This document shows positions 1,485-56,836 of a stretch of 64,000 bases of DNA, one piece after another. The DNA is from Planctomycetota bacterium. GTDB taxonomy: Bacteria > Planctomycetota > B15-G4. Each line of letters opens with the position of its first letter. Within the stretch, counting starts at the first letter, position 1. Made by a program: the position numbers and the translations under genes. The stretch lies in the NCBI GenBank assembly GCA_029259745.1, contig JAJDEO010000013.1:1-64000 (forward strand), in the 5' to 3' direction. The notes under the pieces are model-generated. The model saw nothing but the letters and a program-made list of their open reading frames with translations. It was not told where the DNA came from and ran no database searches.

Positions 1485-1649
1485 CCGGGTTATTCACGGA
1501 GATCGTCACGAGGTCGCGGCTGGGCCTTGCTGGCAAGGCGAAGCGAAGTTTCTGACCAGCAATGGCCATTGAGCACCCGAACCTTCGCTTGAACGCTGCC
1601 GGGAACGATTCAGGAACGACCGCAGCAGATCGTCCGTGAATCATCCGGG
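1485..1649 (+). repeat. MITE-like dispersed repeat, copy A (about 165 bp, full-length)
   Basis: Terminal inverted repeats CCGGGTTATTCACGGAGATCGTC ... GATCGTCCGTGAATCATCCGGG. Internal core GAGGTCGCGGCTGGGCCTTGCTGGCAAGGCGAAGCGA ... GTTCTGACC ... GACCGCAGCAGATCG is shared with copies at 40626, 42118, 51326, 32062, 27537, 48516 and 4398. It ends 78 bp upstream of the VIT-VWA start. Confidence 0.7.
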
Positions 1650-1726
1650 TTCGGACAATCGCGCTGTCATTGGCACGCGATGCGCAAAGGCAGTCTCCGT
1701 CGTCATCCCATTCACGGAGACACCCG

Positions 1727-3757: not shown

Positions 3758-4437
3758 CAGTGAGCCCGGCGCGTGTCGTTCCGATTCCTCGCGACCACGA
3801 TGGCCGCGCGTCGGGCTCCGATGCGTGGCGGCGGGCAGCTCACTTGCCCGTCGTCACGCTCTTGATCGCCTGCTCGGCCCTCGTCGCGGAGCTCTTGCCC
3901 GGCGCCGGGCCACTGCTCGAGTGGCACCGCGCCGCCGTCGCGAAAGGTGAACTCTGGCGCCTCGTCACGGCCCACCTCGTGCACTTCGGCTGGGCCCACC
4001 TGGCCTACGACGTCGGCGCGTGGCTGCTCCTGGCCGGCCTCAGCGAGCGCCGCGGACGCCGCACGATGGTCGCCACCCTGGCCGTCGCCGCCGCGCTGAT
4101 CCCGCTCGCCGTCGCCGTCACGCGCCCGGACCTGCTGACCTACCGCGGGCTCTCGGGCCTCGACTCGGCACTCTTCGCGCTGCTCGTCACGGACGTGCTG
4201 CGCGATCCGTCGACGCCCCGCCGCGGCCTCATCGCGCTCGTCGCCGTCGGGTTCGTCGCCAAGCTCCTCATCGAGTGCAGCGGAACCGGTGTCTTCGTCG
4301 TCACCGAAACCTTCGTGCCCGTGCCGATCGCCCACGCCGTTGGCGCCCTGGTTGGGCTCGCGATGGCGCTCAAACCCCGCGCACACCCGCGCGATGACCC
4401 GGGAAGGTTCGGCCCGGTCGCAGACGATCGTCCATGA
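3754..4437 (+). CDS. rhombosortase (rhomboid-family intramembrane serine peptidase, GlyGly-CTERM processing)
   Basis: Multi-TM protein with rhomboid motifs HLVHFGWAHLAYD, GLSGLDSALF (catalytic Ser) and AHAVGALVGL (His). It is translationally coupled to the upstream GlyGly-CTERM protein. The last 12 codons and the stop (PGRFGPVADDRP*) are contributed by MITE copy H. Confidence 0.75.
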   Translation: MTVSPARVVPIPRDHDGRASGSDAWRRAAHLPVVTLLIACSALVAELLPGAGPLLEWHRAAVAKGELWRLVTAHLVHFGWAHLAYDVGAWLLLAGLSERRGRRTMVATLAVAAALIPLAVAVTRPDLLTYRGLSGLDSALFALLVTDVLRDPSTPRRGLIALVAVGFVAKLLIECSGTGVFVVTETFVPVPIAHAVGALVGLAMALKPRAHPRDDPGRFGPVADDRP

Positions 4438-24759: not shown

Positions 24760-25338
24760 GTGGGCGAGGCCGAAGCAGACGAAACGACGGAGATTCTCCA
24801 CGAGATTGCCAAAGGCAATCGCGCGGCTGTCGATCGACTCGCGCCAGCCGTCTATCGCGAGCTCCATGGCCTTGCGCAAAGCATGCTGCGCCGCGAGGTG
24901 CGCGACCACACGCTACAGCCGACAGCCCTCGTCAACGAAGCGTACCTCCGACTGATCGACCAAGACCGGGTCGAGTGGGCATCGCGTGCGCACTTCTTTG
25001 CGATCGGCGCCAAGGCCATGCGACGCATCCTCATCGACCACGCGCGGAACCGCAAGCGACTCAAGCGCGGTGGAAACCATGTGCGCGTGATCGTCGACAC
25101 CGAGCTTGCCCTCTCCTTCGACCGTCCCGAGAGCTTCCTCGCACTCGACGAAGCTCTCGTCAAACTACGGGGACTCGACCGACGCCAATGCGACGTCGTC
25201 GAGATGCGGTTCTTTTCAGGCATGACCATGAGCGAGATTGCCGAGGCGCTGAACACATCCAAGCGCACCGTCGAGGGCGACTGGATGCTGGCACGTGCTT
25301 GGCTGCGCCGTGAGTTGAGCGACCCAAGCGTCGAATGA
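24760..25338 (+). CDS. ECF sigma factor of the Ser/Thr-kinase-associated (TIGR02999-like) type
   Basis: N-terminus EILHEIAKGNRAAVDRLAPAVYRELHGLAQSMLRREVRDHTLQPTALVNEAYLRL is characteristic of that family. Region 4 FSGMTMSEIAEALNTSKRTVEGDW. Start GTG 24760 (alternative GTG 24733). The stop overlaps the kinase start (ATGA). Confidence 0.7.
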   Translation: MGEAEADETTEILHEIAKGNRAAVDRLAPAVYRELHGLAQSMLRREVRDHTLQPTALVNEAYLRLIDQDRVEWASRAHFFAIGAKAMRRILIDHARNRKRLKRGGNHVRVIVDTELALSFDRPESFLALDEALVKLRGLDRRQCDVVEMRFFSGMTMSEIAEALNTSKRTVEGDWMLARAWLRRELSDPSVE

Positions 25339-27536
25339 GTCGCGATCAGCACAAGCGGGTCAGGAAGCTCTTCCTGCGTGCCGTGCGACGACCGGCCGAC
25401 GAACGCACCGCGTTGCTCGACGCCGAGTGCGACGACCAAGAACTTCGCGCCGACGTGCAGTCACTGCTCGACCACCATGTCGACGACGTCGCGACCGACA
25501 GCCTCGACGACATGCTCCCTGAAGTGCTGGTGCCGAGCAGTGGTCTCCGCAGCGCCTTTCAGTTCATGGCGAGGCAGCGCCCTTTCGTCACGGCCGCGCT
25601 GACAACGCTTCTCGTCGCGTCTGTTGGCATGCTGCTGCTCGCCATCGTCATGCAGCGGGAGATGCGTCACGTCCAAGCTGCCTCGCTCCGCACGATCCAT
25701 CGGGTGAGCCTCGAGGCTCTCGAGCAGGCTCTCAACACCCATCGCATGCAGGTTGTCGACTGCGCCGGTATGCCCAGCGTGCGTGCCGTGGTCCAAGACA
25801 TGGTCGCCCTCGAGGTCGGCGAACGAACGGACGAGGAGAGCGCGGACATCCCCAAGCTGCGCGCGCTCAACGAACGCATGAACGTGTTGATCGCGTCGTG
25901 GCTCGAAACGCTGCCCGGCGCGACGGGCTTCGGGATCGCTGACGAGCGCGGATACGTCCTCGCGATCGACGCCAACGACCGTGATTGGCTCGGCCGCAGG
26001 CTCTCCCCGATGGGTCGCCAGCTGACAACAGCAGTCATCGCCGCTGGACCACGCGTCCTGCTGCCATTCAGCGAGGATGAGCTCGTCGACACACCGCTAC
26101 GCCCCGACTCGATCAACACACTCGCCTTTACCGCTCCCATCCGCGGCAGCGACGGCACGCCGGTTGCCGCACTCGCAGTCTTCGTGGACGTCGAAGCCGA
26201 CTTCACGCGCATCCTCTCGCTCGCGCGGAGCACACCCGCAGGAACGACCTACGCGTTCGACGACCGCGGTGCCATGTTCTCGGCGCAACAGATCGACGAC
26301 GCCCACGACAGCCTGGCTTACGATGACAAAGGACGTCTCTTGCTCCTCGACCCCGGCGCCGACATCACACAAGGCGAGACGCCCGACCCCGTTTCGCTAC
26401 GTCCGACGACGCGCATCGTGCGCCAGGCGCTCGCCGAACGATCGAACCCCGAAGGGCCGCGTACCGGTGAGGTCAGCGACTACCGCGACATCCGCGGAGT
26501 AGAGTCCTTCGGGTTCTGGACGTGGCTCGACGAGTTCGGCTTCGGCGTGATCACGGAGATCAGCGATCGCCAAGCGTCGACGCCGATCCGTCCGCTGCGC
26601 AGCACGAGCGTGGGATTGATGGTCGCCACCATCGGGGCGCTGCTCGCCCTCTTCATCACGACGGGCGCTGCGAGAATGCTCCGTTCACGCCTCGCGCACA
26701 TCCGCCGACTCGGCAGCTACACGCTCGTCGAACACCTCGGCGTCGGCGGCATGGGCGACGTGTTCTTGGCGCGTCACGACATGCTCAAGCGCCCCACCGC
26801 CGTCAAGGTCCTCAGTGCGCGAGCGCTCACCGAGGTCGGCATCGCGCGCTTCGAACGCGAGGTGCAGTTCATGTCGCTGCTCACCCACCCGAACACCGTC
26901 GGCATCTACGATTACGGCCTCACCACCGAAGGGCTGCCGTACTTCGCGATGGAGTACGTCGACGGCACGACGCTCAAGTCGCTCGTCGAAACGGAGGGCG
27001 CGCTGCCCCTCGCGCGCGCCGTCGGCATCCTCGAACAACTCTGTGGAGCCCTCGCCGAGGCGCACACGCTGGGGCTCGTCCACCGCGACGTGAAACCTCT
27101 GAACATCATGCTGACCGAGCGGGGCGGTCGGCACGACTTCGTCAAGCTCCTCGACTTCGGACTCGCCAAGGACGTCCAACGCCGCCAGGACCTCACGCTC
27201 ACGTCCGCGACGACCGGCACGCCGCTCTACATCGCTCCCGAAGTCCTGCGCAGCCCTTCGGCGACGTCACCACGCTCGGACGTCTACTCCGTCGGCATCA
27301 TCGCCTACTACCTCGTGACGTCACGCGAGGTATTCGAGGGCGACACGGCTCTCGAGCTGTTCGCCCAGACCCTGACCGAAGACGTGCCGACACTCGCGGC
27401 ACTCACCGGCATCTCGCCGGACTTCGAGCAACTCATCCGCGACTGCCTCGCGAAGGATCCCGAGGAACGCCCGCAACACGCCGGCGCCGTCCTCGAACGA
27501 CTGCACGCGATCAGGGCCGCCATCGTGCCGACCTAG
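25335..27536 (+). CDS. Ser/Thr protein kinase with periplasmic sensor domain
   Basis: N-terminal ECF-associated motif (LFLRAVRRPADERTALLDAECDDQELRADVQSLLDHH), TM, a roughly 270-aa extracytoplasmic domain, a second TM, then the kinase domain (VGGMGDVFLARH, HRDVKPLNIML, DFGLAKD). Stop TAG 27534-27536 directly abuts MITE copy F. Confidence 0.85.
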   Translation: MSRDQHKRVRKLFLRAVRRPADERTALLDAECDDQELRADVQSLLDHHVDDVATDSLDDMLPEVLVPSSGLRSAFQFMARQRPFVTAALTTLLVASVGMLLLAIVMQREMRHVQAASLRTIHRVSLEALEQALNTHRMQVVDCAGMPSVRAVVQDMVALEVGERTDEESADIPKLRALNERMNVLIASWLETLPGATGFGIADERGYVLAIDANDRDWLGRRLSPMGRQLTTAVIAAGPRVLLPFSEDELVDTPLRPDSINTLAFTAPIRGSDGTPVAALAVFVDVEADFTRILSLARSTPAGTTYAFDDRGAMFSAQQIDDAHDSLAYDDKGRLLLLDPGADITQGETPDPVSLRPTTRIVRQALAERSNPEGPRTGEVSDYRDIRGVESFGFWTWLDEFGFGVITEISDRQASTPIRPLRSTSVGLMVATIGALLALFITTGAARMLRSRLAHIRRLGSYTLVEHLGVGGMGDVFLARHDMLKRPTAVKVLSARALTEVGIARFEREVQFMSLLTHPNTVGIYDYGLTTEGLPYFAMEYVDGTTLKSLVETEGALPLARAVGILEQLCGALAEAHTLGLVHRDVKPLNIMLTERGGRHDFVKLLDFGLAKDVQRRQDLTLTSATTGTPLYIAPEVLRSPSATSPRSDVYSVGIIAYYLVTSREVFEGDTALELFAQTLTEDVPTLAALTGISPDFEQLIRDCLAKDPEERPQHAGAVLERLHAIRAAIVPT

Positions 27537-27703: not shown

Positions 27704-28987
27704 TCAGGGGCCGAAGACAGCCTCCAGCGCGTTGCTCAACGCCACGCCCTTCGGTTGCGAGCCGTCTGCGATCGCCGCCTGGAGGATGGCCGTGAAGGGG
27801 CCGCTCCCGCCGGGCACGGGCAGCGCGAGCTCGCCGGAGCTGTCGGTGCCGAAGGACAGCGTCAGCAAGATCGGCACCGGCACGAGCGTGCCGCCCTTGA
27901 ACGGCGCAGGGTTCTGCGCCAGCCCGACGAACAGGGCCACGGGCGCGTTCGCTGCCGCTTGTGTGAGCGAGAGGGTCGCGAGGCCACCGGAGTCGAGCGC
28001 ATCGCCACACAACGAAAGCGCAGCGTTGCCGGGTCCGCCGAAGCCGAGGTCGGTCTGGCACGTCTCGCAGACGAGTCGCTCGATACGCAGGTCGTCGATG
28101 GCCGCCTCGATGATCGACCCGTCGCCGTTGTCCGAGGCGATGAACCGCAGGCGCATCTGCGAGGTCGGCGCGACGAGGTCGGCGACGACAAAGCGGTGCT
28201 GCATCCAGCCGCCCACCGTCTCCGAGCCCGTCGGACCGACCACCTCGACACTCGTCCACGATGAACCGCCGTTGTTCGTGATGTCGACTTCGAAGATGTC
28301 CGCTCCGGCCGAACCGCCGGTCGAGTTGGAGTACCAGCGCCAGTAGCTGATGAGCGCGTCCTCGCCCGCGAGGTCGAAGAGATTCGTCGTCAGAGTCGTC
28401 TGCCCGCCGTCGACGTCGTTGTCACCGAGCCCGCCACCGAACGAGCCCTGCCCCGTGACGTAGCACTGCGTGCCGGACGGCGTGTGGTCGTCCTCCGGCT
28501 GGGCGCTCGTGCCGACGGGGTTGACGCGTTCCCAAATGCCCGTCGTGGCCGTGTCGGCCGGAGCCCCCACCGACCAGCCCGGGTTCGACTCGAGATCGAC
28601 TTCCGAGAGCAGCACCAGGTCGGATGCCGCGACCGTCGAGTAGCGCGCCGTCGGCGCACCGGCCGGCGCGGTCCAGGTCACACCGTCGGTCGTCTCGGCG
28701 CTCACGTACCACGAAACTTCCGAGCCACACTCGAACGTCGGCAGCAGCGCGCGGTAGTCGTCTCCACCGAGAACGGCGAGCGGCAGGTCGAACAGGCCCG
28801 CACCGGCGTCGTAGTGGAACGTCGCACTTCCCGGCACGATCGACACGCCAGGCTCGGGGTTGATCGTGACGTCTACCACCTCGTTGCTCGTGGAAAACAG
28901 CTCCGGGATGCCGTCGATGACGGTGATCGTGAGGTCGGGATCACCGAGACGCCAGAGAAACAGGCCCTTCTCGATGTCACTGCCCAC
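27704..28987 (-). CDS. C-terminal fragment: MAM-like (choice-of-anchor J-like) domain + conserved CTD (CTD family member 2)
   Basis: MAM-like motifs (PSGTQCYVTGQG, ALISYWRWYSN, GSIIEAAIDDLRIE). C-terminal LAQNPAPFKGGTLVPVPILLTL...ALSNALEAVFGP is the conserved CTD. It has no start codon of its own (GTG only), so it is the continuation of the upstream fragment. Confidence 0.55.
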   Translation of the reverse strand: MGSDIEKGLFLWRLGDPDLTITVIDGIPELFSTSNEVVDVTINPEPGVSIVPGSATFHYDAGAGLFDLPLAVLGGDDYRALLPTFECGSEVSWYVSAETTDGVTWTAPAGAPTARYSTVAASDLVLLSEVDLESNPGWSVGAPADTATTGIWERVNPVGTSAQPEDDHTPSGTQCYVTGQGSFGGGLGDNDVDGGQTTLTTNLFDLAGEDALISYWRWYSNSTGGSAGADIFEVDITNNGGSSWTSVEVVGPTGSETVGGWMQHRFVVADLVAPTSQMRLRFIASDNGDGSIIEAAIDDLRIERLVCETCQTDLGFGGPGNAALSLCGDALDSGGLATLSLTQAAANAPVALFVGLAQNPAPFKGGTLVPVPILLTLSFGTDSSGELALPVPGGSGPFTAILQAAIADGSQPKGVALSNALEAVFGP

Positions 28988-30149
28988 GAGCGTGCCACTC
29001 GGTAGGTACGGGTAGACGTTCCACAGACCGTTGAACTCCGCGGCATCGTCTTGCGGGTACGTGTCGAAGAAGGCCGTCGACGGGCGCCGTCGGGTTCGAG
29101 GCGTCGAAGACCCGCAGACCGCTGCGGTAGTTCGCCTCGAAGATTTGCGTGCCCTTGGTGTAGAGGTTGTGGTCGATCGCCGTCAGACCGGTCGTGAACG
29201 TTCCGACCTGCGTCGGGTTCGAGAGGTTCGAGACGTCCGCGATGCGCGTCGTCGTCAGCGTGCCGAAGGACGTCTCGTCAAGCTCGTCGTTGATGTAGAT
29301 GTACTGGTTGTCCGGCGAGAGCCAGCCTTGGTGACTGAAGACGGGGCTCGAGTAGAAGAGCGTGCTCAGCGTCTGGATGTTGCCCTTGTTCGTGACATCG
29401 AGGATGTCGACACCCGGCGAGCCGCCGCCCGACGATGTCTCCGAGTAGGCGAAGACGATCTGCTTGCCCGCGTTGGGACCACTCGTGTACGTGATGGCCT
29501 GGGCGTCATGGACGTAGCGCGTATCCCAGCTCGTGACGAACTGCGGCGAACTCGGGTTCGAGAGGTCGTAGATCCGGAGACCTTCGGTCGGGTCGCCGCC
29601 GCCTCCCGTGCGATACAAGTAACCCGACGTCTCGTCGATCGCGAGGTTGTGCGTGGCGCTCGTCCCCGGACCGCCGACGGAGCTCAAGAGCTGCACGTTG
29701 CCGTTGTCGATGTCCGACATGTCGACGACCTGGATCCCGTCGCCACCTTCCGACACGTAGTACGCGTGGTCTTGGTAGACCTTGATGTCGCGCCACGAAC
29801 TTCCCACCGCGGAAATGACCTGCACGATGTCCGGCTGACCGGGATCGGTGACTTCGACGAACGCCACGGCGTTGGACGTCCCGATGATCGCGTACTCGCG
29901 ACCCGACGGCGCCGTGTAGCCCCAACAATCTGCGCCCGAGGACCCACCGCCGAGCTGGTCGAGCGGGATCCAGCCGAGGAGCGAGATCCCATTGGCCGGA
30001 AAGACCTCTGGCGTGTCACCTGCCGTGAGCTTGAGCGGCCCCGTGAACGGAGCCTGCCGCGCCGAGATGAACTTGACGCTGTCATGCGCCGCGAGAGTGG
30101 GCGCCAAAGCGCACACGAGGAGAGACGCTGCAACGAGACGGAGGGTCAT
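28977..30149 (-). CDS. N-terminal fragment: choice-of-anchor B family beta-propeller (signal peptide + LVIVD-like repeats)
   Basis: See the pseudogene entry. The last roughly 25 codons before the stop are R-rich and not protein-like. Confidence 0.55.
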   Translation of the reverse strand: MTLRLVAASLLVCALAPTLAAHDSVKFISARQAPFTGPLKLTAGDTPEVFPANGISLLGWIPLDQLGGGSSGADCWGYTAPSGREYAIIGTSNAVAFVEVTDPGQPDIVQVISAVGSSWRDIKVYQDHAYYVSEGGDGIQVVDMSDIDNGNVQLLSSVGGPGTSATHNLAIDETSGYLYRTGGGGDPTEGLRIYDLSNPSSPQFVTSWDTRYVHDAQAITYTSGPNAGKQIVFAYSETSSGGGSPGVDILDVTNKGNIQTLSTLFYSSPVFSHQGWLSPDNQYIYINDELDETSFGTLTTTRIADVSNLSNPTQVGTFTTGLTAIDHNLYTKGTQIFEANYRSGLRVFDASNPTAPVDGLLRHVPARRCRGVQRSVERLPVPTEWHARGQ

Positions 30150-42397: not shown

Positions 42398-44035
42398 ATG
42401 TCCCGCTTGCCGCTCGCCTCTGTTCTCGGCGCCCTCGTTCTCGCGCCGACCAGCCTTGCGTCCGACCCTAGCGACGTCGTCATCCAAGCCGTCGTGCTCG
42501 AGGGTGACACTATCAGCGGCATCGGCGACGTCACGACGACGGGCGCTGTCGCCGTCAACAACGCCGGCACATGGCTCGTCGAAGTCGACACGAACAACCC
42601 CGACACCGACATCGACGGCGCCATCGTCGGTGCCAGCGGAGTCGTGTTCGCCGAAGGTCAGTCGATCGCCACTCCGACCGGCGCGCTGCTCGACTCGTTC
42701 GGCGCGATCTCCGGCGCGCTCAACAACGCTGGCGACCTCGCCTGGAACCTCTTCCTCGACAACACCGTGGGCGGCGGCAACGACGACTCGGGTATCTACT
42801 TCAACACCGCGCAGGTGGTCCAAGAAGCAGGCATCGCGCTCGTCACGGGCCTCTCGGTCGGCACGACCTGGGAGGGCTTCTTCTCGGTCCACCACAACGA
42901 CGCCAACCAGGTGCTCGCGATGACGAGCGTCGACGACCCGGCCATCGCGACCAGCGTCGATCGCGCGCTCGTGCTCTTCACGATCGACGGCACGGGCACG
43001 CCGACGAGCGCAGAGGTCGTCCTCAAGGAAGGCGACATCCCGCCCGGTCAGACAGAAGCCGTCGCCGACATGGAGACGAGCGTGCACAACTTCGTCCTCA
43101 ACGATGCCGGGCAAACGCTGCTGATCGCCGACCTCGCCGGCGACACGGCCGTCGATCACGCCGTCTACATGGACGGCACCCTGCTCGCGCAAGAGGGTTC
43201 GCCGTCTCCGGTGACAGGCCGCAACTGGGACCTGCTGTCGCTCGCCGAACTCGACCTCAACAACGCGGGCAGCTGGGTGCTCAGCGGATCGATCGAGGGC
43301 GACACCGCCACGGACGACATCATCGTCGTGGACGGCGACGTCTTCATCCAAACCGGCGACAGTCTGCCGGCGACGGGCGGATCGCCGATCACGTCGCTCG
43401 GGACGACGGGCTCGTCGGGCCCCGTGTACATCGGCGACAACGGCAACGTGCTCTGGTCGGCCGAGTGGAACGGTGGGAGCTCGAAGGGACTCTTCCTCAA
43501 CGACCGCCTGTTGGCCGAGATCAACCTGACCTCGATCGGCGGGTTCGTGCTTGAAGAGATCTTCGCCGTCACCGAGGGCTACGCGCTCAGCGATGACGGC
43601 CAGAAGGTCATCTTCCGCGGACGCCTTTCGGGCAGCATCGACGGAGCGTTCCTGATCGACGTGGGTCCGTGGGTCAGCCTCGGCAAGGGACTCGCCGGCG
43701 TCAACGGTGTGCCATGCCTGACGGGCTCGGGCACGCTCGCCGCGGGTGACGACGTCACGCTGTCACTGCGCGATGCAGCGCCCTCGGCCGTCACGAACCT
43801 CGTGATCGGATTCACGGAACTCTGCGCACCGTTCAAGGGCGGCACGATCGTGCCGAGTGTCGACGTGCTCATCGGCGGCCTCCCCACCAACGGGTTCGGC
43901 GACCTCGCACTGACGGCACCCTTCCCGGCCGGCGTCCCCGCGGCCACCGACCTCTACTTCCAGTTCTTCACGTCAGACGCAGCAGCGATCAAAGGCATCT
44001 CGGCCTCGAACGGCGTGCGCGGGACGACGCCCTGA
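42398..44035 (+). CDS. secreted repeat protein with conserved C-terminal domain (CTD family member 3)
   Basis: Signal peptide MSRLPLASVLGALVLAPTSLASD. Roughly 60-aa internal repeats (..DG.L.AQEG......G..L.S....NNAG.W.). C-terminus NLVIGFTELCAPFKGGTIVPSVDVLIGGLPTNGFGDLALTAPFPAGVPAATDLYFQ...SASNGVRGTTP. Confidence 0.75.
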   Translation: MSRLPLASVLGALVLAPTSLASDPSDVVIQAVVLEGDTISGIGDVTTTGAVAVNNAGTWLVEVDTNNPDTDIDGAIVGASGVVFAEGQSIATPTGALLDSFGAISGALNNAGDLAWNLFLDNTVGGGNDDSGIYFNTAQVVQEAGIALVTGLSVGTTWEGFFSVHHNDANQVLAMTSVDDPAIATSVDRALVLFTIDGTGTPTSAEVVLKEGDIPPGQTEAVADMETSVHNFVLNDAGQTLLIADLAGDTAVDHAVYMDGTLLAQEGSPSPVTGRNWDLLSLAELDLNNAGSWVLSGSIEGDTATDDIIVVDGDVFIQTGDSLPATGGSPITSLGTTGSSGPVYIGDNGNVLWSAEWNGGSSKGLFLNDRLLAEINLTSIGGFVLEEIFAVTEGYALSDDGQKVIFRGRLSGSIDGAFLIDVGPWVSLGKGLAGVNGVPCLTGSGTLAAGDDVTLSLRDAAPSAVTNLVIGFTELCAPFKGGTIVPSVDVLIGGLPTNGFGDLALTAPFPAGVPAATDLYFQFFTSDAAAIKGISASNGVRGTTP

Positions 44036-44100
44036 CAACGCGGCCCGCGCGAGCGCGAGCAGCACGCCAATACAGCAACAATCACGACCGGAGTTCGAGG

Positions 44101-45717
44101 ATGATGATCCGCAACGCCCTGCTTGCCGCCGCAACCATCCTCGGCCTCGGTCCGTCGGCCGTGGCTGACGACATCTTCGTTCCTGCCGACACGCCCTCGA
44201 TTCAGTTCGCTCTGAACTCCGCGTCGACCGGCGACCGCATCTTCGTCTCGGCCGGAGCCTACGCGAACGCTCTCGCGTTCTTGGGCAAGGACGTCGAAGT
44301 CATCGCTGTCGACGGCCCGGAGGTCACGGTGCTCGACGGCGCGGCGATCAACGGCGGGGCCTCGGTGATCTTCGCCTTGGGCACCGGGGACGGCGCGCTC
44401 GTGAAGGGCTTCACGATCCGCGACAACGACGGCGATGCGGTCACCATCGAAGACGCCGTCGGTACGCTCGAGAACTGCGTCATCTCGGGCACGAACGGAA
44501 ACGGTATTCGGGTCTTCGCGAACGGTGAGCTGCGAGCGACGGAGGTCACGATCACGGGGTGTAGCCTGAGCGGTGTCGACGGGGCGGGTGGAACGTCGAT
44601 CCTGGAGCGCTGTGAGATCTCGTCTTGCGGAAACACGGGGCTTCGGGGTGGCACCTGCATCGAGTGCCTCATCGAGGGGAACGGCAACGCGTCGTCCTTC
44701 GGCGGCGGAGCCTTCGGCGCGACGCTCATCGACTGCATCGTGCGCGACAACCTCGCATCGACGGGTGGCGGCGGGGCTTTCCTGGGGGGCGCGCAAGGCA
44801 CGACCTTCAGCTCGAACCACGCGACGTTCGCCGGCGGCGGCTACTACTTCACAGGTTCGTTCGGAGCCTCGCTCAGCGGTGCGACGTTCATCGACAACAC
44901 GGACGCCAACGGAACTTCGGGCGCCGCCATCAGTGCATCGAGTGACGGCATCTTCGGGACCAGTGCGTTCATCGGCGACTGTGTGTTCGTCCGCAACGAC
45001 GCATCGGTGAGCGCCTACGCAGCCACCTCGACCAGTTCGGCGGGCTTCGGGTCGTGTACGTTCATCGACTCGGACGCGTTCGTGTCCGCCGACAGTATGG
45101 GCGTCGCGAACTCGATCGTGCGCGGTGGCTCGATCGTCTCGTCGTCGGGAACGCTGAGCGTGACGTACAGCAACGTCGAAGGCGGTGCCGTCGGTGAGGG
45201 CAACATCGACGCCGACCCGCTGTTCGTCGGCGGTGCCGATCAGGGCGTGGTCTGCCTCGGCCTCGGGTCCCCGTGCATCGATACCGGCAACCCGACGGTC
45301 TTCGACCCCGACGGCTCGGTCCTCGACATGGGCGCCGAGCCCTACTCGGTCTTCTGCGACGCCGACAACGCACTGCGCGGACGCGCCGGCTTCCCGACGC
45401 TCACACCCAGCGGCGACACGACGCCGGGCGCGGCGCTGTCACTCGCCCTCGAGCACGGCGTGCCGAACGGCACGAGCAACTGGATCCTCGGGATCGCGCC
45501 GGTCTTCGCGTCCTTGAAGGGCGGCGTGCTCGTCCCCGACCTCACGTTCCTGCTGCCCGGGCTGCCTCTCGACGCCACGGGCAGCCTGATGCTCGGCTCG
45601 ACCTGGCCCGCCGGCATTCCGGCCGGCACACCCGTCTGGATCCAGGCCTGGATGGTCGACTCGCAGGCCGTGAAGAACTTCTCGGCGTCGAACGGCGTGG
45701 CCATCCTCGGGAGCTGA
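44101..45717 (+). CDS. secreted right-handed beta-helix (pectate-lyase-fold) repeat protein with conserved CTD (CTD family member 4)
   Basis: Signal peptide. Repeated G-rich beta-helix rungs (GTNGNGIRVF, GCSLSGVDGAGG, GNTGLRGG, ...). C-terminus ILGIAPVFASLKGGVLVPDLTFLLPGLPLDATGSLMLGSTWPAGIPAGTPVWIQAW...SASNGVAILGS. Confidence 0.75.
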   Translation: MMIRNALLAAATILGLGPSAVADDIFVPADTPSIQFALNSASTGDRIFVSAGAYANALAFLGKDVEVIAVDGPEVTVLDGAAINGGASVIFALGTGDGALVKGFTIRDNDGDAVTIEDAVGTLENCVISGTNGNGIRVFANGELRATEVTITGCSLSGVDGAGGTSILERCEISSCGNTGLRGGTCIECLIEGNGNASSFGGGAFGATLIDCIVRDNLASTGGGGAFLGGAQGTTFSSNHATFAGGGYYFTGSFGASLSGATFIDNTDANGTSGAAISASSDGIFGTSAFIGDCVFVRNDASVSAYAATSTSSAGFGSCTFIDSDAFVSADSMGVANSIVRGGSIVSSSGTLSVTYSNVEGGAVGEGNIDADPLFVGGADQGVVCLGLGSPCIDTGNPTVFDPDGSVLDMGAEPYSVFCDADNALRGRAGFPTLTPSGDTTPGAALSLALEHGVPNGTSNWILGIAPVFASLKGGVLVPDLTFLLPGLPLDATGSLMLGSTWPAGIPAGTPVWIQAWMVDSQAVKNFSASNGVAILGS

Positions 45718-45727
45718 CGCGCGCGTC

Positions 45728-46303
45728 TCAGCTCGCCGTCAAGGCTGCGGCGGTTTCGACGAGCTTCGCCACGAGGCCGTTGACGAACGTCGCCGTCCTT
45801 TCATCGGTGAACGACCCATCGTCGGCGAAGGCCTCGTGAACCCTTCCGACGGCGGCATCGCCGGGCACGACGTGCGCGCCGATGCCGGACAGAATCGCGC
45901 GCACGTGAACGAGACCACGCATCCCGCCGAGCGCCCCCGGGGACGCACTCAGTAACCCCACGACCTTGCCGCGCGTCACCTGCGTGCCGGCGGCGACAGC
46001 ACTCGGACGCGACGTCCAGTCGATGACGTTCTTCAGCAGCGGTGTGATCGATCCGTTGTACTCGGGACACGCGATGAGGAACGCGTCGTGCTCGAGCATG
46101 AGTCGCTGCATGGCCAAGACGTTCTCGGGAATGCCTTCGCGCTCCTCGAGGTCGCCGTCGTAAAGCGGCATCGGCAATGCGGCAAGATCGACGAGCGTCA
46201 CATCGACCCCTGTGCCGCGCGCTTGCTCTGCGGCATAGCCAGCGAGACGTTTGTTCCAAGACGCTTGGCGAACACTTCCGGCAAAGACGAGAACACGTGT
46301 CAT
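45728..46303 (-). CDS. NAD(P)H-dependent FMN reductase family oxidoreductase
   Basis: MTRVLVFAGSVRQASWNKRLAGY...FLIACPEYNGSITPLLKNVIDW matches the flavodoxin-like FMN reductase family. RBS GGAG. The very long R-rich ORF above it (to 48145) is rejected as an antisense artefact. Confidence 0.8.
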   Translation of the reverse strand: MTRVLVFAGSVRQASWNKRLAGYAAEQARGTGVDVTLVDLAALPMPLYDGDLEEREGIPENVLAMQRLMLEHDAFLIACPEYNGSITPLLKNVIDWTSRPSAVAAGTQVTRGKVVGLLSASPGALGGMRGLVHVRAILSGIGAHVVPGDAAVGRVHEAFADDGSFTDERTATFVNGLVAKLVETAAALTAS

Positions 46304-46558
46304 CGAGGGTCTCCGTAGCTTGGGGCGTGACTGCGGAAAACGATAGCAGTCGTGCGCGGCCGCGACACGGGCACGGCGGAGACAGGCACGGCGGACCGCG
46401 CCGGCCAACCCGGGTGGATCAGCATCTTTCGACAGGTCGGCGAACTCACGCTTCGTTGAGCGCAAGAGGCGTGTTGTTCGACGCAGCCCTGCTCGCGCAG
46501 GCGCATCCTTAAGGTAGGGTGCCGAGCACGCTCGCTTCCCGCTTCTCGAGGTGCCGAC

Positions 46559-48088
46559 ATGTCTCCATGCCTGTTGCTCACGCGCACGATCGGCGCGGTC
46601 GCGCTCCTCTCCGCGCTGCTCCACGCTCAGACCTGGCCGGTTGTCGCGCGGTCGGCCGATGGCTCCTTCGACGTCCGCATCGTCCCGGGCACGGGGCTCG
46701 TCGTCGAGCGTGACGGCGAGGTCGTCTTCCGCGATCCCGAAGGTGCATTTCCGCGCTTCGACGTCGACGGAACGCTGATCTTCGAAACGGCGTACGACGA
46801 CGGACACATGCTCTTCGGGCGCAAGACGTGGCGCTGGTCGCCGAGCACGGGCCAGTCGCGCAAGCTCGGCGATTCCGTCGCCATCCCGCCGTGGCGCCCC
46901 CTCGTCGGGAACGACGCCAGCGGCGACGGCGGAGATGTCCGACTCTGCATCGATCCCGGGCACGGCGGCAGCGACCCCGGCGCGGTCGGCAACGGCCTCC
47001 TCGAGAAGGACATCGTCCTCGACGTCGGCTTGCGTCTGCGCGATCTGCTCGACGCCGACACGGCGGACGCCTCGGGGGGCGGCGCGTGGGACGTCCTCAT
47101 GACGCGCGACACGGACGTCTTCATCTCGCTGCTCCAGCGCGTCACGCTCGCCAACACCTTCGGCGCCGACAGCTTCATCTCGATCCACGCCAACGGCTTC
47201 GGCGACCCGGCCGCCAACGGCACCGAGACCTTCGCGTTCGCCGAAGGCACGGTCGCGGCGTCTCTGCGCGACCGTATCCACGCGCGCATGATCGAGGCCT
47301 GGCAGCTGACCGATCGCGGCACGAAGACGGCCGGCTTCTACGTGCTCGTCAACACGGCGATGCCCGCGTCGCTCTCCGAGCTCGCCTTTGTCACGAACCC
47401 CGGTGATGCCCTCGTGCTCGGCAACCCCGCCGAGCGCCAGCAGGCCGCCCGCGCGCACCTCTTCGCCGCCCAGGAACATCACGGTTTCGCGCCCTACGAG
47501 CCCGGCGGCGGACCGACAGCCGGAACGCTCAAGGGGATTCTCTTCGACGCGAATGTCGGCACGTCCGCGCCGCTCGCGGGCGCACTCGTCGCCCTCGCCG
47601 ACGGCACCTTCACGACGACGACGAGCAACGGCCTCTACGAGTTCCCGCTTCCGGCCGGGACGTACTCCTTCGCGGCAACGGCAGCAGGCTTCGACGTCGG
47701 CACGGCGAGCGAAACCGTCACGAGCGGTGATGTCTGGGAGAGCCTCGGTCTCGCCACCCGTGTCGCGCCGACGCTCGCGACGACGGTCGTGGGTCACACG
47801 CTCACGCTCGCGGCCACGGGCGATCCGGCCACGCCGGTCTTCCTCGCCGCGGCGCTCTTTCCGCAGCTGCCCGCGCTTTCGCTCGGCAACAAGGGAACGC
47901 TGTGGGTCGACGTCGCGACCCTCGTGGTCGTGCCGCTCGGCAACGCGGGACCGACAGGCGTCGCCTCGACGATCGCGACGCTGCCGAGTCTCCCCGGCGC
48001 GACCGGCGTGCCCCTCCACCTGCAGGCCATCGCCGTGTCCGGCGGGAGTACGCAGCTCTCGAACGGCACGGCGTTTGCTCTTCCGTGA
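46559..48088 (+). CDS. N-acetylmuramoyl-L-alanine amidase (Amidase_3) + carboxypeptidase-regulatory-like domain + conserved CTD (CTD family member 5)
   Basis: Signal peptide. Amidase_3 motifs CIDPGHGGSDPGAVG, EKDIVLDV, ISIHANG and GFYVLVNTAMPASLSELAFVTNP. SNGLYEFPLPAGTYSF is a CarD-like beta-sandwich. C-terminus PALSLGNKGTLWVDVATLVVVPLGNAGP...LQAIAVSGGSTQLSNGTAFALP. Confidence 0.8.
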   Translation: MSPCLLLTRTIGAVALLSALLHAQTWPVVARSADGSFDVRIVPGTGLVVERDGEVVFRDPEGAFPRFDVDGTLIFETAYDDGHMLFGRKTWRWSPSTGQSRKLGDSVAIPPWRPLVGNDASGDGGDVRLCIDPGHGGSDPGAVGNGLLEKDIVLDVGLRLRDLLDADTADASGGGAWDVLMTRDTDVFISLLQRVTLANTFGADSFISIHANGFGDPAANGTETFAFAEGTVAASLRDRIHARMIEAWQLTDRGTKTAGFYVLVNTAMPASLSELAFVTNPGDALVLGNPAERQQAARAHLFAAQEHHGFAPYEPGGGPTAGTLKGILFDANVGTSAPLAGALVALADGTFTTTTSNGLYEFPLPAGTYSFAATAAGFDVGTASETVTSGDVWESLGLATRVAPTLATTVVGHTLTLAATGDPATPVFLAAALFPQLPALSLGNKGTLWVDVATLVVVPLGNAGPTGVASTIATLPSLPGATGVPLHLQAIAVSGGSTQLSNGTAFALP

Positions 48089-51448: not shown

Positions 51449-51502
51449 TTAACGTGAGACGCCGCTGCCGCGACGGCAGCGAGATATCTTGGGGGCAAGA
51501 TC

Positions 51503-54500
51503 ATGGCCGAGTACACCGTCGTCGGGGAACGCACGCGCAACGCCGAAAGCGCACTGCGACTCGACGGAACGACCATCTCCGTGGCGCGCGGAGTGCGCAT
51601 GCTCGGCGCGACGCGCGCCGGCGCGCACGAGACGAAGATCGAGATCGGGAAAGACGATCTCATCGAGGTGGAGTTCGACAACGGCTTCGTCCTCTGGACG
51701 ACCATCGACCGCCTCGAGCACGACACGCGCCAGGGTGCGACGCGCGGCGCCGAGGGCACGCTCCCGACGCGCTATCCCACGCCGGACGATACCGGCGAGC
51801 GCGGCTTCGTCGGCAACGTCATCCGCGCCCTCAAAGTGCTCAACTACGACCTTCCGAAAGAGGGCGCGCGTGCGGTTGCCGCGAAGGTCGAAGGGCAACT
51901 GGCGGGCGAGGGATTCCTGCGCATCGCGCGCGACGGCAGTCTGACGCCCGAAGCCCCCGCTGCGGACAACGCCGACAAGCCGGTGCTTGTCCTCATCCAC
52001 GGCACGGCCTCGGCGACGGCGAACGCCTACTCGGGGCTCTTCGAGACGAACAACAAGCTCTGGCGCGAGCTGCACGACCACTACGAAGGCCGCGTCTTCG
52101 GCTTCGAACACCGAACGCTCACGCAGAGTCCGCTGCAGAACGCGGCAGACCTGCTCGACGCCCTCCCGGCGGACCTCGAGCTGCACCTCGTCACGCACAG
52201 CCGCGGTGGACTCGTCGGCGACCTGATCGCGCATGGCCAGGTGCAGGGCGACATCTTTGCGCCCGACGACATCGAGCGCGAACTCGCCCACGCCTTCGGC
52301 AAGGGATCCTCGGCGTTCACCGAGCAACGCAAGCTCTACCGCAAGTACCAGCGCGCCATCGCCGCCAAGCGTCCGCGCGTCACGCGCTTCGTGCGGGTCG
52401 GTTGTCCGGCAGCCGGCACGACGTTGGCTTCGGGGCGCCTCGACACGCTCTTCTCGATCCTCGTCAACCTCGCCAACGGCATCCCGGGAATCGGTCCGTT
52501 CGTCGCGGCTTTCGGTGAACTCGTCGCGGCCGTCGCCAAGGAGCGCACCCAGACTGACGCCCTGCCCGGCCTCGAAGCCCAGCGCCCCACCTCCGCGTTC
52601 ATCCGCCTGCTGAACAGCTCGCAGCACGTCCTCGAGAGCGACCTCACGGTGCTCGCCGGCGACTCGGACGGCTTCATCAAGAACCTCGCCAACCTCTTCT
52701 TCTGGAAAGCCAACGACCTCGTCGTCGACACCCGCTCGATGGCCGGTGGCGCGACCCGGCGCGAGTACCTCTGGCACCTCGAAGAGAACCGCCACGTCAC
52801 GCACGTGAACTACTTCCGTCGCTCCGAGACGGCCTCGCTCGTCCAGCGCGCACTTCTGCGCACGGACGCCGGAACGGCGGGCTACGAGCGACGCGCGCGG
52901 AACAGTGCGATGCGCGGCGAGGTCGACGAGGGCAAGCCCGACGAGAAGGTCGATCAGACGGGCGTGGTCTTGCTGCCCGGCATCATGGGCTCGCATCTGA
53001 GCGTCGAGGACGGCAACCGCCGCAACCGCATCTGGCTCGACAAGTCGGACATCATGATGGGACGCGGGAAGCTGCTCCGCACGGGAGCCGCGACGGTGCA
53101 TCCCGACGGTGTCCTTCAAAGCGCCTACGACGACATCCGCGACAACTTCGTCGGGCACGACCTGCACGTCATGCCCATGGCGTACGACTGGCGCATTTCG
53201 CTGACGCGCGCCGCCGACCAGCTCAACGCGCTCGTCCGGCAGCGGCTCGAGGCCTCATCGGAACCTCTGCACCTGCTGGCCCACTCGATGGGCGGTGTCG
53301 TCGCGAGCCTGTTCATCGCACGCCACGACGATACCTGGCAGCGACTGCGAGCCGGTGGCGGGCGGCTTGTCCAAGCCGGGACACCGAACCGCGGTTCGTA
53401 CGTCATCCCGCGCATCTTCCAGGGCACCGAGAAGATGCTGCGCATGCTTGCCGGCCTCGACTTTCGTGCCGACACGAAGCAGTGGGCGACGTGGGCCACC
53501 GGCTGGCAAGGGGTGCTGGAACTCACGCCGCAGTTCGACGACCTCGACTTCTCGAAGACGCAAACGTGGAAGGACTTCGCGCCGCTTGCGCATCCGAGCG
53601 AAGCGCAGCTCCGCAGAGCTGGCAACATCTGGGAGATCTTGCACGAGCAGACGAAGAAGCTCGCCGATGAAGACGTTCTCTACGTCGCCGGCGGCCCCAC
53701 CGAGACGCCGATCTACGACCCGACCGCCGTGAGTGACGACAAGAGCGGCGCGCACCATGTCATCCGCTGGACCGAGCGCGGCGACGGCCGTGTCACCTGG
53801 GACTCGGGGATCCCGCCGCGTACTCGCACCTGGTACATCCCCGTCAAGCACGGCAGCTTGCTCAACGAGAGGCAGGCCTTCGACGGCCTCCGCGAGCTCG
53901 TCACCACGGGCGCGACGGACAAGCTCGCCAGCGAACCGCCACCGGCCTCGACGATGCTGCGGTCGGGCACCGAAGACGTCCCGGTGCTCGCCGACGACGA
54001 GCACATGCCGTTCATTCCGTCGGACGAGCAACTCGAGGCCGCTGCTCTCGATGCCGAGGACCCGACCGAACGCCGCGCGCGTCGTCGCCGCGACACGCCG
54101 CCCGTCACACTCTCGGTCGTGCACGGCGACCTGCGCTTCTCACGCCACCCGATCATGGCGGGCCACTACGCCGGCGACCCGATCGTGCACGCCGAAGCCG
54201 CACTCGACCGCTGCCTCGACGGGGCACTCCGCACGCAGCACCAGCTCGGCCTCTATCCCGGCGCGACGGGAACGGCCGAGATCCTCCTGAGCCCGCGAAG
54301 CGCTTTGCGCTCAGACCTGGCCGGACCGAGTGGCGCGATCATCCTCGGCCTCGGAAACGTCGGCGAGCTGACGCCAGGCGCCCTCACACGTTCGATCGAG
54401 GCGGGGCTGCTGCGCTTTGCACAGGCCGCCTGCGACCGTCCCCATTCTGCCGCGGGCCTGACCGTGTCGACGCTCCTGGTCGGGAGTGGCGAGGCCGGAC

Positions 54501-56836
54501 TCGCCGTCGCGCCGATCATCGACGCGCTGCTCGACGGAGTCGAACGCACGAATCGCGCCATCGCGAATCTTCCCCGAGACGACGAGGGCGCGTCGCTCCG
54601 TCAGCTCTCTCCGATCGCGCGCATCGAGATCATCGAGCTGTATCACGACATCGCTCTCGAGGCCCTCCACGCCCTGCGCGCCGCGCCAGCACGCAACGGC
54701 GTCACCATTCATCCCACGCTGATCGCACGCAGCGGTGGTCGCCGACGGGCGCGCGCATCAGCGCCGGCGGGTTGGTGGACGCGCCTGTCGATCGAAGCCT
54801 CGCGCGACGAGAAGTGCGCCGACCGCGTCACGCTCCGATTCACGTCGCACGGCGAGCGGGCGCGGGCCCGCGTCAGCGACGTGTGCCTGCAAGAACGCCT
54901 CGTGAGTCAGGTGCTCGCCGAGACGATGCGCAACCAGGCCTCGGCGACGGGACACGTTCCGCAGGCGCTCTTCGAGCTGCTCGTGCCGTGTGACCTCAAG
55001 GCCGGCGCCGCCGACCAACGCGACATCCAACTCGTGCTCGACGAGACCTCGGCGAGCTACCCGTGGGAGCTGCTCGTCGACCGCAACTCCGCCGGCGATC
55101 GGCCGATCGGCATCGGCGCGGGGATGCTGCGGCAGCTGCGTGTGAAGAGTCCACCGCTCGTCCACCATCCCGAGAACCACAGTGCGCTGGTGGTCGGCGA
55201 CCCGCCGTCGAACTTCCCGGCACTCCCGGGTGCGCGACGCGAGGCCCAGGCCGTCGCCGCGACGCTCTCGGATCGCGGCTGGGACGTCGTGACGCAGATC
55301 CGCAGCAGCGATGACGCCACCGATGTCTCGGCGTCGAGCGTCGTGCGCGCCCTGCTGACGCACGACGCACGCATCCTCCACCTCGCCGGCCACGGCATCC
55401 ACGACGCCAACGACCCGCGCAAGTCGGGGCTCGTCCTCGGTGGCAGCCCGAACGATCCCAAGGACCCGCCGGTGCTCGTGACGGTCGAGGAGATCGCGCA
55501 GATGCGCACGCAGCCCGAGGTCGTCTTCATCAACTGCTGCCATCTGGGACGCATCGAATCGAACTCGCCGTTCCCGGAACTGGCGTCCAACCTCGCGGCC
55601 GAGTTCATTCGCGCGGGCGTAAAGATCGTGGTGGCTGCGGGCTGGGCCGTCGACGACCGCGCCGCGAAGACGTTCAGCGAAACCTTCTACGAGTGGATGC
55701 TCGGCGGGGCCGACTTCGGCACGGCGGTTCGCCGCGCGCGCGAAGCCACGTACGACCAGTTCAGCGAGTCGAACACCTGGGGCGCCTACCAGTGCTACGG
55801 CGACCCCGGCTTCCGGCTGTCGATGGACCTCGAGGTTCGCGCACTCGCGCAAGACACGTCACGCCGACGCACTCGCTTCGTCGACCCCAGCGAGATCGCG
55901 ATCGCGCTCGACAACATCGTGCACACCGCATGCGTCGATACGTCGGACAAGGAGAAGGAAGGGCTCGCCCGCTGGCTCGAGTCGCTCACGTCGGCGGCCG
56001 AGGACGCGGGGTGGGAAAGCGACCCGGACGTCCTCATCGGCCTCGCGCGTGCGCATGGCGAGCTCGGCAATCACGAGATGTGCATCGCGCTGACCGAACG
56101 CGCACAGAGGCTCGAGGCCGGTCGCGTGACGCTGCACGACATCGAGCAACTCGCCAACCATCGCGCGCGCGTCGCGTTGTCATCGCGCGACGCGAAGCTC
56201 TTCGAACGCGTCATCGGAGATCTCGAGGCGCTGATCACGACGCACGGCGCAACGGCCGAGCGCAAGTCGCTCTTGGCTTCGACGTGGAAACGTTTCGCGA
56301 TCCTCCAGATCAGCAAGGACGCCTCGCGCAAGGCCGTGCGCAAGGCGGTCTGCGCCATGACGCAGCGATACATCGAGGCCACGGCGCTCGACGCGCCTCA
56401 GTGGTTCTACCCGGCGACGAACGCACTCCTCGGCGTGCTACTGCTCGGCGGCCCGTGGGCGCGCGCGCCGCGCAAGAGCACCGTGGCCCGCGAGATCTGG
56501 GACGCACTCGACGGGTGGGCGAAGCGCGAGACGTTCGAGACGAACTTGCGCCGTGCCGAGGACAGCCTTCCGAACGACGGGCACCAAGACCTCTGGGACG
56601 CCCTCGCGTCCCCGGAACTCGCGGTAGTGAAGGCCCTCGCGGACGATGCGTTCGCCAAACGATCTCAGCAGATCGCCGCCCGCTATCGCTCGGTGCTCGC
56701 TCTGTACGGATCACAGCGCGAGATCGGTTCAGTCGCCAACAACTGGGACTTCGCTCTGAACGCCGCCAAGGCGCTTGACGAACCTCAACTCATCCGCGAC
56801 ATCGCGCAACTCCAGCAGCTTCTCCAGCGCCCCTGA
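51503..56836 (+). CDS. giant (1777 aa) multidomain protein: two PGAP1/LCAT-like alpha/beta-hydrolase (lipase/esterase) domains + CHAT (caspase-like) peptidase domain + helical/TPR-like C-terminus
   Basis: Domain 1 VLVLIHGTASA...LVTHSRGGLVGDL. Domain 2 VVLLPGIMGSHL...LLAHSMGGVVASLF, an AHSMGG nucleophile elbow. CHAT HGxxD near the end of ILHLAGHGIHDANDP and the Cys dyad region VVFINCCHLG. C-terminal helical repeats. Single uninterrupted ORF. Confidence 0.85.
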   Translation: MAEYTVVGERTRNAESALRLDGTTISVARGVRMLGATRAGAHETKIEIGKDDLIEVEFDNGFVLWTTIDRLEHDTRQGATRGAEGTLPTRYPTPDDTGERGFVGNVIRALKVLNYDLPKEGARAVAAKVEGQLAGEGFLRIARDGSLTPEAPAADNADKPVLVLIHGTASATANAYSGLFETNNKLWRELHDHYEGRVFGFEHRTLTQSPLQNAADLLDALPADLELHLVTHSRGGLVGDLIAHGQVQGDIFAPDDIERELAHAFGKGSSAFTEQRKLYRKYQRAIAAKRPRVTRFVRVGCPAAGTTLASGRLDTLFSILVNLANGIPGIGPFVAAFGELVAAVAKERTQTDALPGLEAQRPTSAFIRLLNSSQHVLESDLTVLAGDSDGFIKNLANLFFWKANDLVVDTRSMAGGATRREYLWHLEENRHVTHVNYFRRSETASLVQRALLRTDAGTAGYERRARNSAMRGEVDEGKPDEKVDQTGVVLLPGIMGSHLSVEDGNRRNRIWLDKSDIMMGRGKLLRTGAATVHPDGVLQSAYDDIRDNFVGHDLHVMPMAYDWRISLTRAADQLNALVRQRLEASSEPLHLLAHSMGGVVASLFIARHDDTWQRLRAGGGRLVQAGTPNRGSYVIPRIFQGTEKMLRMLAGLDFRADTKQWATWATGWQGVLELTPQFDDLDFSKTQTWKDFAPLAHPSEAQLRRAGNIWEILHEQTKKLADEDVLYVAGGPTETPIYDPTAVSDDKSGAHHVIRWTERGDGRVTWDSGIPPRTRTWYIPVKHGSLLNERQAFDGLRELVTTGATDKLASEPPPASTMLRSGTEDVPVLADDEHMPFIPSDEQLEAAALDAEDPTERRARRRRDTPPVTLSVVHGDLRFSRHPIMAGHYAGDPIVHAEAALDRCLDGALRTQHQLGLYPGATGTAEILLSPRSALRSDLAGPSGAIILGLGNVGELTPGALTRSIEAGLLRFAQAACDRPHSAAGLTVSTLLVGSGEAGLAVAPIIDALLDGVERTNRAIANLPRDDEGASLRQLSPIARIEIIELYHDIALEALHALRAAPARNGVTIHPTLIARSGGRRRARASAPAGWWTRLSIEASRDEKCADRVTLRFTSHGERARARVSDVCLQERLVSQVLAETMRNQASATGHVPQALFELLVPCDLKAGAADQRDIQLVLDETSASYPWELLVDRNSAGDRPIGIGAGMLRQLRVKSPPLVHHPENHSALVVGDPPSNFPALPGARREAQAVAATLSDRGWDVVTQIRSSDDATDVSASSVVRALLTHDARILHLAGHGIHDANDPRKSGLVLGGSPNDPKDPPVLVTVEEIAQMRTQPEVVFINCCHLGRIESNSPFPELASNLAAEFIRAGVKIVVAAGWAVDDRAAKTFSETFYEWMLGGADFGTAVRRAREATYDQFSESNTWGAYQCYGDPGFRLSMDLEVRALAQDTSRRRTRFVDPSEIAIALDNIVHTACVDTSDKEKEGLARWLESLTSAAEDAGWESDPDVLIGLARAHGELGNHEMCIALTERAQRLEAGRVTLHDIEQLANHRARVALSSRDAKLFERVIGDLEALITTHGATAERKSLLASTWKRFAILQISKDASRKAVRKAVCAMTQRYIEATALDAPQWFYPATNALLGVLLLGGPWARAPRKSTVAREIWDALDGWAKRETFETNLRRAEDSLPNDGHQDLWDALASPELAVVKALADDAFAKRSQQIAARYRSVLALYGSQREIGSVANNWDFALNAAKALDEPQLIRDIAQLQQLLQRP

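Follow-up and report, generated by a model that had tools for sequence, protein, structure and literature searches.

A single-copy terminal beta-sandwich domain on diverse secreted proteins of Planctomycetota, a candidate surface-targeting module

Five genes in a 64,000-nucleotide stretch of a Planctomycetota genome (assembly GCA_029259745.1, contig JAJDEO010000013.1, positions 1 to 64,000; hereafter the window) encode secreted proteins with unrelated N-terminal parts, and a reading of the sequence alone had proposed that their C-termini share a novel sorting or secretion tag. Four of them, a trypsin-like serine protease, a choice-of-anchor B protein, a repeat protein and a right-handed beta-helix protein, end in a common domain that belongs to no described family, while the fifth, an amidase, ends in a divergent relative of it. 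We name the common module the PFKGG terminal domain for the hairpin that is invariant in it. The interpretation that we favour, with moderate confidence, is that of a surface-targeting or retention module, appended once to varied Sec-exported proteins, that would bind a shared component of the cell envelope.

The four canonical C-termini in the window are, by sequence comparison, unquestionably homologous. Leave-one-out searches with hidden Markov models (HMMs) recovered the C-terminus of the repeat protein at E = 1.6e-15, that of the beta-helix protein at 5.3e-17, that of the trypsin-like protease at 1.5e-18 and that of the choice-of-anchor B protein at 9.4e-7. With a family HMM of 122 sequences, built in each case without the sequence under test, the E values for the same four proteins were 7e-50, 1.2e-39, 9e-32 and 1.2e-38. 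The shared domain is therefore real, with both sets of scores lying far beyond chance. No further copies are present in the window, where the rest of the six-frame translation scored no better than E of about 2 against the family HMM.

The domain is longer than the roughly 85 amino acids attributed to it in the sequence-only reading. It spans about 118-130 residues in nine strands and starts upstream of the part originally noted, at a conserved W-x-(D)LG-x-GLAG-x2-G-x-P-x-L-x-G-x-G motif. Across clusters that are mutually less than 50% identical, 34 positions are at least 85% conserved, which suggests constraint from a shared partner. The conserved segments are the W-x-DLG start, the PFKGG hairpin, WP-x-G-x-P, Q-x-W-x2-D and an ASN in the last strand with a terminal proline, and the conserved aromatic residues are W34, F88, W118 and W133. 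There is no conserved pair of cysteines in the canonical subfamily, and the linker upstream of the domain has no special composition.

An AlphaFold2 model of the terminal domain of the protease (pLDDT 91) is helix-free and consists of nine beta strands, and the predicted fold is a generic immunoglobulin (Ig)-like beta-sandwich. A beta-sandwich like the C-terminal domain (CTD) of the type IX secretion system (T9SS) and a dockerin had both been named beforehand as possible outcomes; the model agrees with the first in being an Ig-like sandwich and is not a dockerin. Foldseek found nothing in the PDB at E ≤ 1e-3, the weak neighbours including CBM21 (E 0.013, TM 0.42), CBM56 and the Ig-like domains of GH2 enzymes. 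A sequence search of the PDB gave no match to the domain, no model in Pfam-A (2025 copy) or NCBIfam 20.0 covers it in the window proteins or in 90 full-length relatives, and searches of the literature turned up no account of it.

Lysine accounts for only about 1% of residues in the representatives P0121-P0265, yet the lysine of the PFKGG hairpin is 94% conserved. Together with the invariant aspartate in QxWxxD and the serine and asparagine of the final strand, it may form a functional or intramolecularly cross-linking triad; this lysine is not kept in the sister subfamilies described below.

The family is large. When 1.84 billion cluster representatives were searched with a profile, 9,285 clusters (50% identity) matched at E ≤ 1e-3 and 2,271 at E ≤ 1e-30, and one exact peptide pattern led to 278 tblastn-confirmed copies in GTDB representative genomes. 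Taxonomy was taken from the best 80 of these 278 copies, which are spread over 13 metagenome-assembled genomes (MAGs); 10 of these bear the label Planctomycetota, Phycisphaerales or Phycisphaeraceae. Two further MAGs with 63-73% G+C are labelled Gammaproteobacteria or Pseudohongiellaceae (loci L003, L017, L024, L039, L071 and L073), which is probably a matter of mislabelling or mis-binning; they contain many copies of the domain as well as an orthologous amidase (P0274). In the part of each genome that was covered, single MAGs encode at least 32, 30, 23 and 22 copies.

The position of the domain within its proteins is close to uniform. It ends no more than 4 residues from the C-terminus in 117 of 120 matches from a word-indexed search, nearly all matches in the 150 best cluster representatives (127-1,044 amino acids) stop 1-2 residues short of the protein end, and 148 of 151 complete genomic copies in 1.39 Mb of related loci stop 1-5 codons before the stop codon. 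All of 145 representatives have a single copy, and the terminal residue is a proline in 129 of them, typically in the context ...GTTP and also ...ATTP. The last 40 residues reach a maximum 18-residue mean hydropathy of 1.68 (mean 0.60) and hold no C-terminal transmembrane helix. At the other end of the protein, a signal-peptide-like hydrophobic N-terminus is present in 96 of 104 full-length proteins, with a lipobox-like motif in 6 of 81.

Three genes have a reversed order, in which the signal peptide is followed by the domain and then by a further region, a metallo-beta-lactamase fold in two different MAGs and an uncharacterised stretch of about 250 amino acids in the third gene. The module can thus stand on its own, and a C-terminal position is not obligatory for it; these placements favour an autonomous binding module over a strict C-terminal secretion signal.

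What the domain is attached to varies widely. The 90 full-length relatives form 52 unrelated N-terminal groups, and no Pfam family is common to all of them. FG-GAP/VCBS propellers (22) and FG-GAP_2 (13) are accompanied by DUF7948, beta-helix and PKD domains, Peptidase_C25 and M12B peptidases, glucose/sorbosone (pyrroloquinoline quinone) dehydrogenases, nucleases with an endonuclease/phosphatase domain and C-type lectins. NCBIfam models add the choice-of-anchor families Q (3), L and R, the NxxGxxAF repeat, HAF repeats and ScyE/ScyF. With family B from the window, five choice-of-anchor families (B, Q, L, R and the NxxGxxAF repeat) occur among the cargo; NCBIfam's naming marks these as families in which members from other lineages bear alternative sorting signals.

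The amidase had been counted as a fifth member on a par with the other four. By HMM only those four are canonical: the amidase tail scores -8 bits, which is below membership, with the family HMM from which it had been left out. As a single sequence it aligned to the family with an hhalign probability of 0.07%, and as a lone query it retrieved no relatives. Searching with the full-length amidase turned up an identical protein, encoded on a 130-kb NCBI contig, and about 27 amidase orthologues (42-68% identity) all have the same variant tail, with the motif ...KG-x-LWP...P-x-PG-x2-H-x-QA...LSNGAAF-x-LP. A profile of these orthologous tails aligned to the amidase-free main family with an hhalign probability of 85.5% (E 5.7e-6) over 107 columns in the same register, and the predicted fold of the amidase-type subfamily has the same nine-strand order as the main family. 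The amidase tail is accordingly best described as a divergent sister subfamily, a relationship visible only to profile-profile comparison and in predicted structure.

This amidase module ends in four ways: with the canonical domain (homologues P0293 and P0296), with the amidase-type variant, with a cysteine-rich relative or with a MYXO-CTERM tail. The cysteine-rich sister subfamily ('QWWYRDP'; motif YC-x-AK-x-NS-x-GC...PF-x-GGTLC...QWWYRDP...GLS-x-GL-x-F-x3-P) aligns to the main family with an hhalign probability of 97% (E 9e-11), and its carriers include the amidase homologues P0300, P0302-P0304, P0319, P0341, P0367 and P0368. None of the beta-sandwich tails, whether canonical, amidase-type or cysteine-rich, has an NCBIfam model. 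Myxococcota homologues of the amidase have MYXO-CTERM in place of the domain, two of them being so named by the Joint Genome Institute, and experiments have established MYXO-CTERM as a tag for sorting to the cell surface (PMC11980579). That MYXO-CTERM occupies the same position is what one would expect if the domain is a tag for sorting or anchoring. A further tail variant, 'RHYQAWYRN...FNLSNG', is found on P0295 and P0297-P0299.

We read the PFKGG domain as a tag or anchor because it combines a single terminal copy, strong conservation, diverse Sec-exported cargo and dozens of copies per genome with confinement to one clade, and because other phyla put proven sorting signals on the same cargo families. 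In the proposed mechanism, the N-terminal signal peptide would direct the cargo through the Sec system, as the N-termini of these proteins suggest, and the domain would fold in the periplasm. The conserved residues of the domain would then be bound by a single common partner, which may be a glycan of the envelope or a receptor protein, so that proteases, lytic amidases, propellers and adhesin-like proteins reach the cell surface and stay there. The surface is proposed as destination because comparable cargo in other lineages bears PEP-CTERM, T9SS or MYXO-CTERM tags; the common partner is a postulate of the same scheme.

Several points weigh against this interpretation. The clade restriction is known from the best 80 of 278 genome copies, and signal peptides were called by a hydropathy heuristic. 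The sequence-only reading had proposed a dedicated export or attachment pathway; the diverse Sec cargo and the terminal position that it noted hold up, and MYXO-CTERM at the same place on amidases can be added to them, but neither the window nor the recurrent neighbours in the 1.39 Mb of related loci revealed machinery of that kind. Among the neighbours that recur in the 77 loci concerned there was neither a translocon nor a scaffold nor a membrane enzyme resembling a sortase. An Ig-like sandwich with three conserved tryptophans could, moreover, equally be a substrate-binding or adhesive module.

This last point leads to a distinctly unlikely alternative, in which the domain resembles a carbohydrate-binding module (CBM) or an adhesin and would bring the attached enzymes to an external ligand, such as a polysaccharide or the wall of a prey cell, in place of binding the bacterium's own envelope. 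The size of the sandwich, its conserved W34, F88, W118 and W133, the CBM21, CBM56 and GH2 domains among its weak structural neighbours, its ability to work at either terminus and the lytic amidases, proteases and nucleases among the cargo would all suit such a role. Most of the cargo, however, is not glycan-active and consists mainly of FG-GAP/VCBS propellers and proteins of choice-of-anchor or adhesin type, Pfam CBM models do not match, and CBMs are commonly tandem or internal whereas this domain is single and almost always terminal. The exchange with MYXO-CTERM on homologous amidases also points to cell-surface sorting.

A generic Ig-like fold without any machinery in 77 neighbourhoods might alternatively describe a passive appendage, that is, a C-terminal pro-domain or folding aid of the PPC kind, or an Ig spacer with no sorting role. 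C-terminal beta-sandwich pro-domains do occur on secreted proteases. We nevertheless consider a passive role very unlikely, given very high conservation across more than 9,000 clusters, the spread over 52 cargo groups that are mostly not proteases, the strictness of the single copy, terminal position and terminal proline, the concentration of dozens of copies per genome in one clade and the lack of a match to the PPC model.

Recurrent neighbours of the domain-bearing genes in the 77 loci, other than cargo, are only Ser/Thr kinases, sulfatases and planctomycete-type extracytoplasmic function (ECF) sigma factors, and the kinases and sulfatases are abundant planctomycetal families. In the window, an ECF sigma homologue and a Ser/Thr kinase lie beside the choice-of-anchor gene (Table 1), and PF07638-like ECF sigma genes, often followed by a Ser/Thr kinase, lie near domain genes in L070 (10343-10978), L031, L034, L045, L052 and L063. 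These neighbours may be regulators of the domain-bearing genes. C25 peptidases are themselves among the carriers: P0188 combines Propeptide_C25 and Peptidase_C25 (gingipain/PorU family) and ends in the domain, and domain-bearing C25 peptidases occur in at least three MAGs, each beside a Ser/Thr kinase, in loci that hold 2-5 domain copies. These peptidases may have a part in processing, or may be no more than cargo themselves. A more elaborate scheme, which we hold to be unlikely, would make the domain the address tag of a hitherto unrecognised, T9SS-independent pathway of outer-membrane secretion and attachment in Phycisphaerae-type Planctomycetota that handles dozens of cargo proteins in each cell, with the tagged C25 peptidase as processing enzyme and ECF sigma/Ser-Thr kinase pairs as regulators.

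The window itself has a planctomycetal look, with DUF1501, Ser/Thr kinases, FG-GAP/ASPIC, sulfotransferase and multihaem proteins. Its five open reading frames were confirmed where the sequence-only reading had placed them, each with a Sec-like N-terminus, and the N-terminal parts were largely as described then, with Beta_helix, Amidase_3, Trypsin_2 and choice_anch_B found by model and the suggested choice-of-anchor J not found. The choice-of-anchor gene is not one uninterrupted frame. It is a single gene if a frameshift near 29,100 is bridged: the G+C profile at third codon positions and the translation place the switch near 29,090-29,130 (within 28,977-29,182, minus strand), where the protein reads ...NPTAPVDG / ...AFFDTYPQDD..., and this is either an assembly error or a pseudogene. 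A homologue of the repeat protein, likewise bearing the domain, is encoded in locus L061. The three genes between 42 and 48 kb were considered as an operon, and the idea was dropped because their order is not kept in relatives.

A rhombosortase gene overlaps the end of a gene for a VIT-vWA protein with a GlyGly-CTERM-type tail elsewhere in the window (Table 1), the two forming a complete sorting pair of the classical kind; signals of the short type are thus present side by side with the new domain. An S41 protein (C-terminal processing peptidase-like; 18739-20613, plus strand) is encoded 2.5 kb downstream of the tagged trypsin-like protease. A giant protein of 1,792 amino acids (51458-56836, plus strand) contains DUF7379, an LCAT-like hydrolase region, a CHAT/caspase-like protease domain and a TPR-S sensor, and is without the terminal domain of the family.

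Table 1. Positions of the genes and domains discussed. Coordinates refer to the window except where a locus (L) is named.
Feature	Coordinates	Strand	Remarks
VIT-vWA protein	1640-3757	+	Classical GlyGly-CTERM-type tail ...GSGGGAVDIWILALAAGAVFAARRRQ...
Rhombosortase	3739-4437	+	TIGR03902, 108 bits against a cutoff of 84
Trypsin-like serine protease	14695-16209	+	Pfam Trypsin_2/Trypsin; signal peptide
Canonical terminal domain, trypsin-like protease	15817-16206	+	Amino acids 375-504
ECF sigma homologue	24772-25272	+	
Ser/Thr kinase	25314-27536	+	
Choice-of-anchor B protein	27704-30149	-	TIGR04312 on the N-terminal part, 264 bits against a cutoff of 100
Canonical terminal domain, choice-of-anchor B protein	27707-28060	-	
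Repeat protein	42398-44035	+	Weak NxxGxxAF choice-of-anchor repeat (TIGR05002, 29 bits, below cutoff); signal peptide
Canonical terminal domain, repeat protein	43667-44032	+	
Right-handed beta-helix protein	44101-45717	+	Pfam Beta_helix, E 8e-13; signal peptide
Canonical terminal domain, beta-helix protein	45349-45714	+	
MurNAc-L-Ala amidase	46559-48088	+	Amidase_3 and CarboxypepD_reg; signal peptide
Divergent sister-subfamily terminal domain, amidase	47732-48085	+	
Gene with N-terminal domain, L058	9836-11161	+	Signal peptide, domain, then metallo-beta-lactamase fold or ~250-residue region
Gene with N-terminal domain, L038	9620-11137	+	As for L058
Gene with N-terminal domain, L024	2527-3774	-	As for L058
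C25 peptidase with domain, P0188			
C25 peptidase with domain, L009	15748-18513	-	
C25 peptidase with domain, L031	1494-4640	+	
C25 peptidase with domain, L070	12527-15178	+	
C25 peptidase with domain, L007	11882-14098	+	

The delivery of proteins to the surface of Planctomycetota is poorly understood, and the organisms bearing the family are represented here by MAGs alone. If the PFKGG domain is a surface-targeting module, it would allow the surface and secreted proteome of this clade to be read directly by computation, and it could serve as bait for the receptor or translocon. A Pfam or NCBIfam model is missing, and the alignments obtained here suffice to build one.

Among known systems the closest parallel is the T9SS of Bacteroidota, whose CTDs, like the PFKGG domain, are present in single copy at the terminus of dozens of unrelated cargo proteins per genome, C25 peptidases included, within one lineage. 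Like T9SS CTDs, too, the domain is predicted to form an Ig-like beta-sandwich at the very end of proteins exported by Sec. It is possible, if rather unlikely, that the domain is a signal of this type, in which case a dedicated outer-membrane translocon would recognise the folded domain, a tagged C25 (PorU-like) peptidase would remove it, and the cargo would be released or covalently attached to a surface glycolipid; the proteins with both Propeptide_C25 and Peptidase_C25 that bear the domain are what such a scheme would call for. These C25 proteins have a gingipain-type propeptide, however, and may be just cargo. Neither the type A CTD model (TIGR04183/Por_Secre_tail; E ≤ 0.1 for the window proteins) nor the type B model (TIGR04131) matched the window proteins or the 90 relatives, in agreement with the sequence-only reading. 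T9SS CTDs have roughly 70-100 amino acids and seven strands, whereas the PFKGG domain has about 120 and nine, its motifs (PFKGG, QxWxxD and ASN...P) are unlike theirs, and its structural matches are no better than for any Ig domain. Its occasional N-terminal placement is unknown for T9SS CTDs, and genes of the T9SS machinery (Sov/SprA, PorV, PorU and PorK-N) were not seen in the window or among recurrent neighbours in the 1.39 Mb of related loci. To our knowledge, no T9SS is known in Planctomycetota.

The tripartite signals PEP-CTERM, GlyGly-CTERM and MYXO-CTERM, and likewise LPXTG, are found where this domain is found and on similar cargo, such as amidases and choice-of-anchor families. They are 20-35 amino acids long, consist of a motif, a transmembrane helix and a basic tail, and are cut by a membrane sortase, whereas the PFKGG domain is a soluble beta-sandwich of 120 residues without a transmembrane segment. 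By hydropathy and by NCBIfam search of the window proteins and 90 relatives, no such signal is present in the domain tails, as had been noted at the outset for a C-terminal transmembrane helix and for LPXTG, PEP and GlyGly motifs.

Dockerins, SLH domains and the pairing of type B CTDs with PorP offer another parallel, since they too are autonomous terminal modules, mostly C-terminal but occasionally N-terminal, and tie many different enzymes non-covalently to one partner. Dockerins are calcium-binding helical repeats and SLH domains are helical, whereas the PFKGG domain is predicted to be all-beta; Pfam gave no dockerin match, and neither a cohesin-like nor any other partner was identified. 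PPC, PKD, Big and CBM domains are, like the PFKGG domain, beta-sandwiches (about 100 amino acids in their case) appended to secreted enzymes. They differ in being tandem or internal and in occurring in many phyla, in contrast to a module that is single, terminal and clade-restricted, and neither PPC (PF04151) nor any CBM family in Pfam matched the terminal domain in the window proteins and 90 relatives.

On this evidence from sequence, the PFKGG domain is not a member of any known sorting-domain family, because it shows none of their sequence-testable defining features. If it does act in surface targeting, it would be a new and non-homologous entry among the few bacterial protein-sorting domains. 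Its likeness to the T9SS CTD is confined to logic and fold class.

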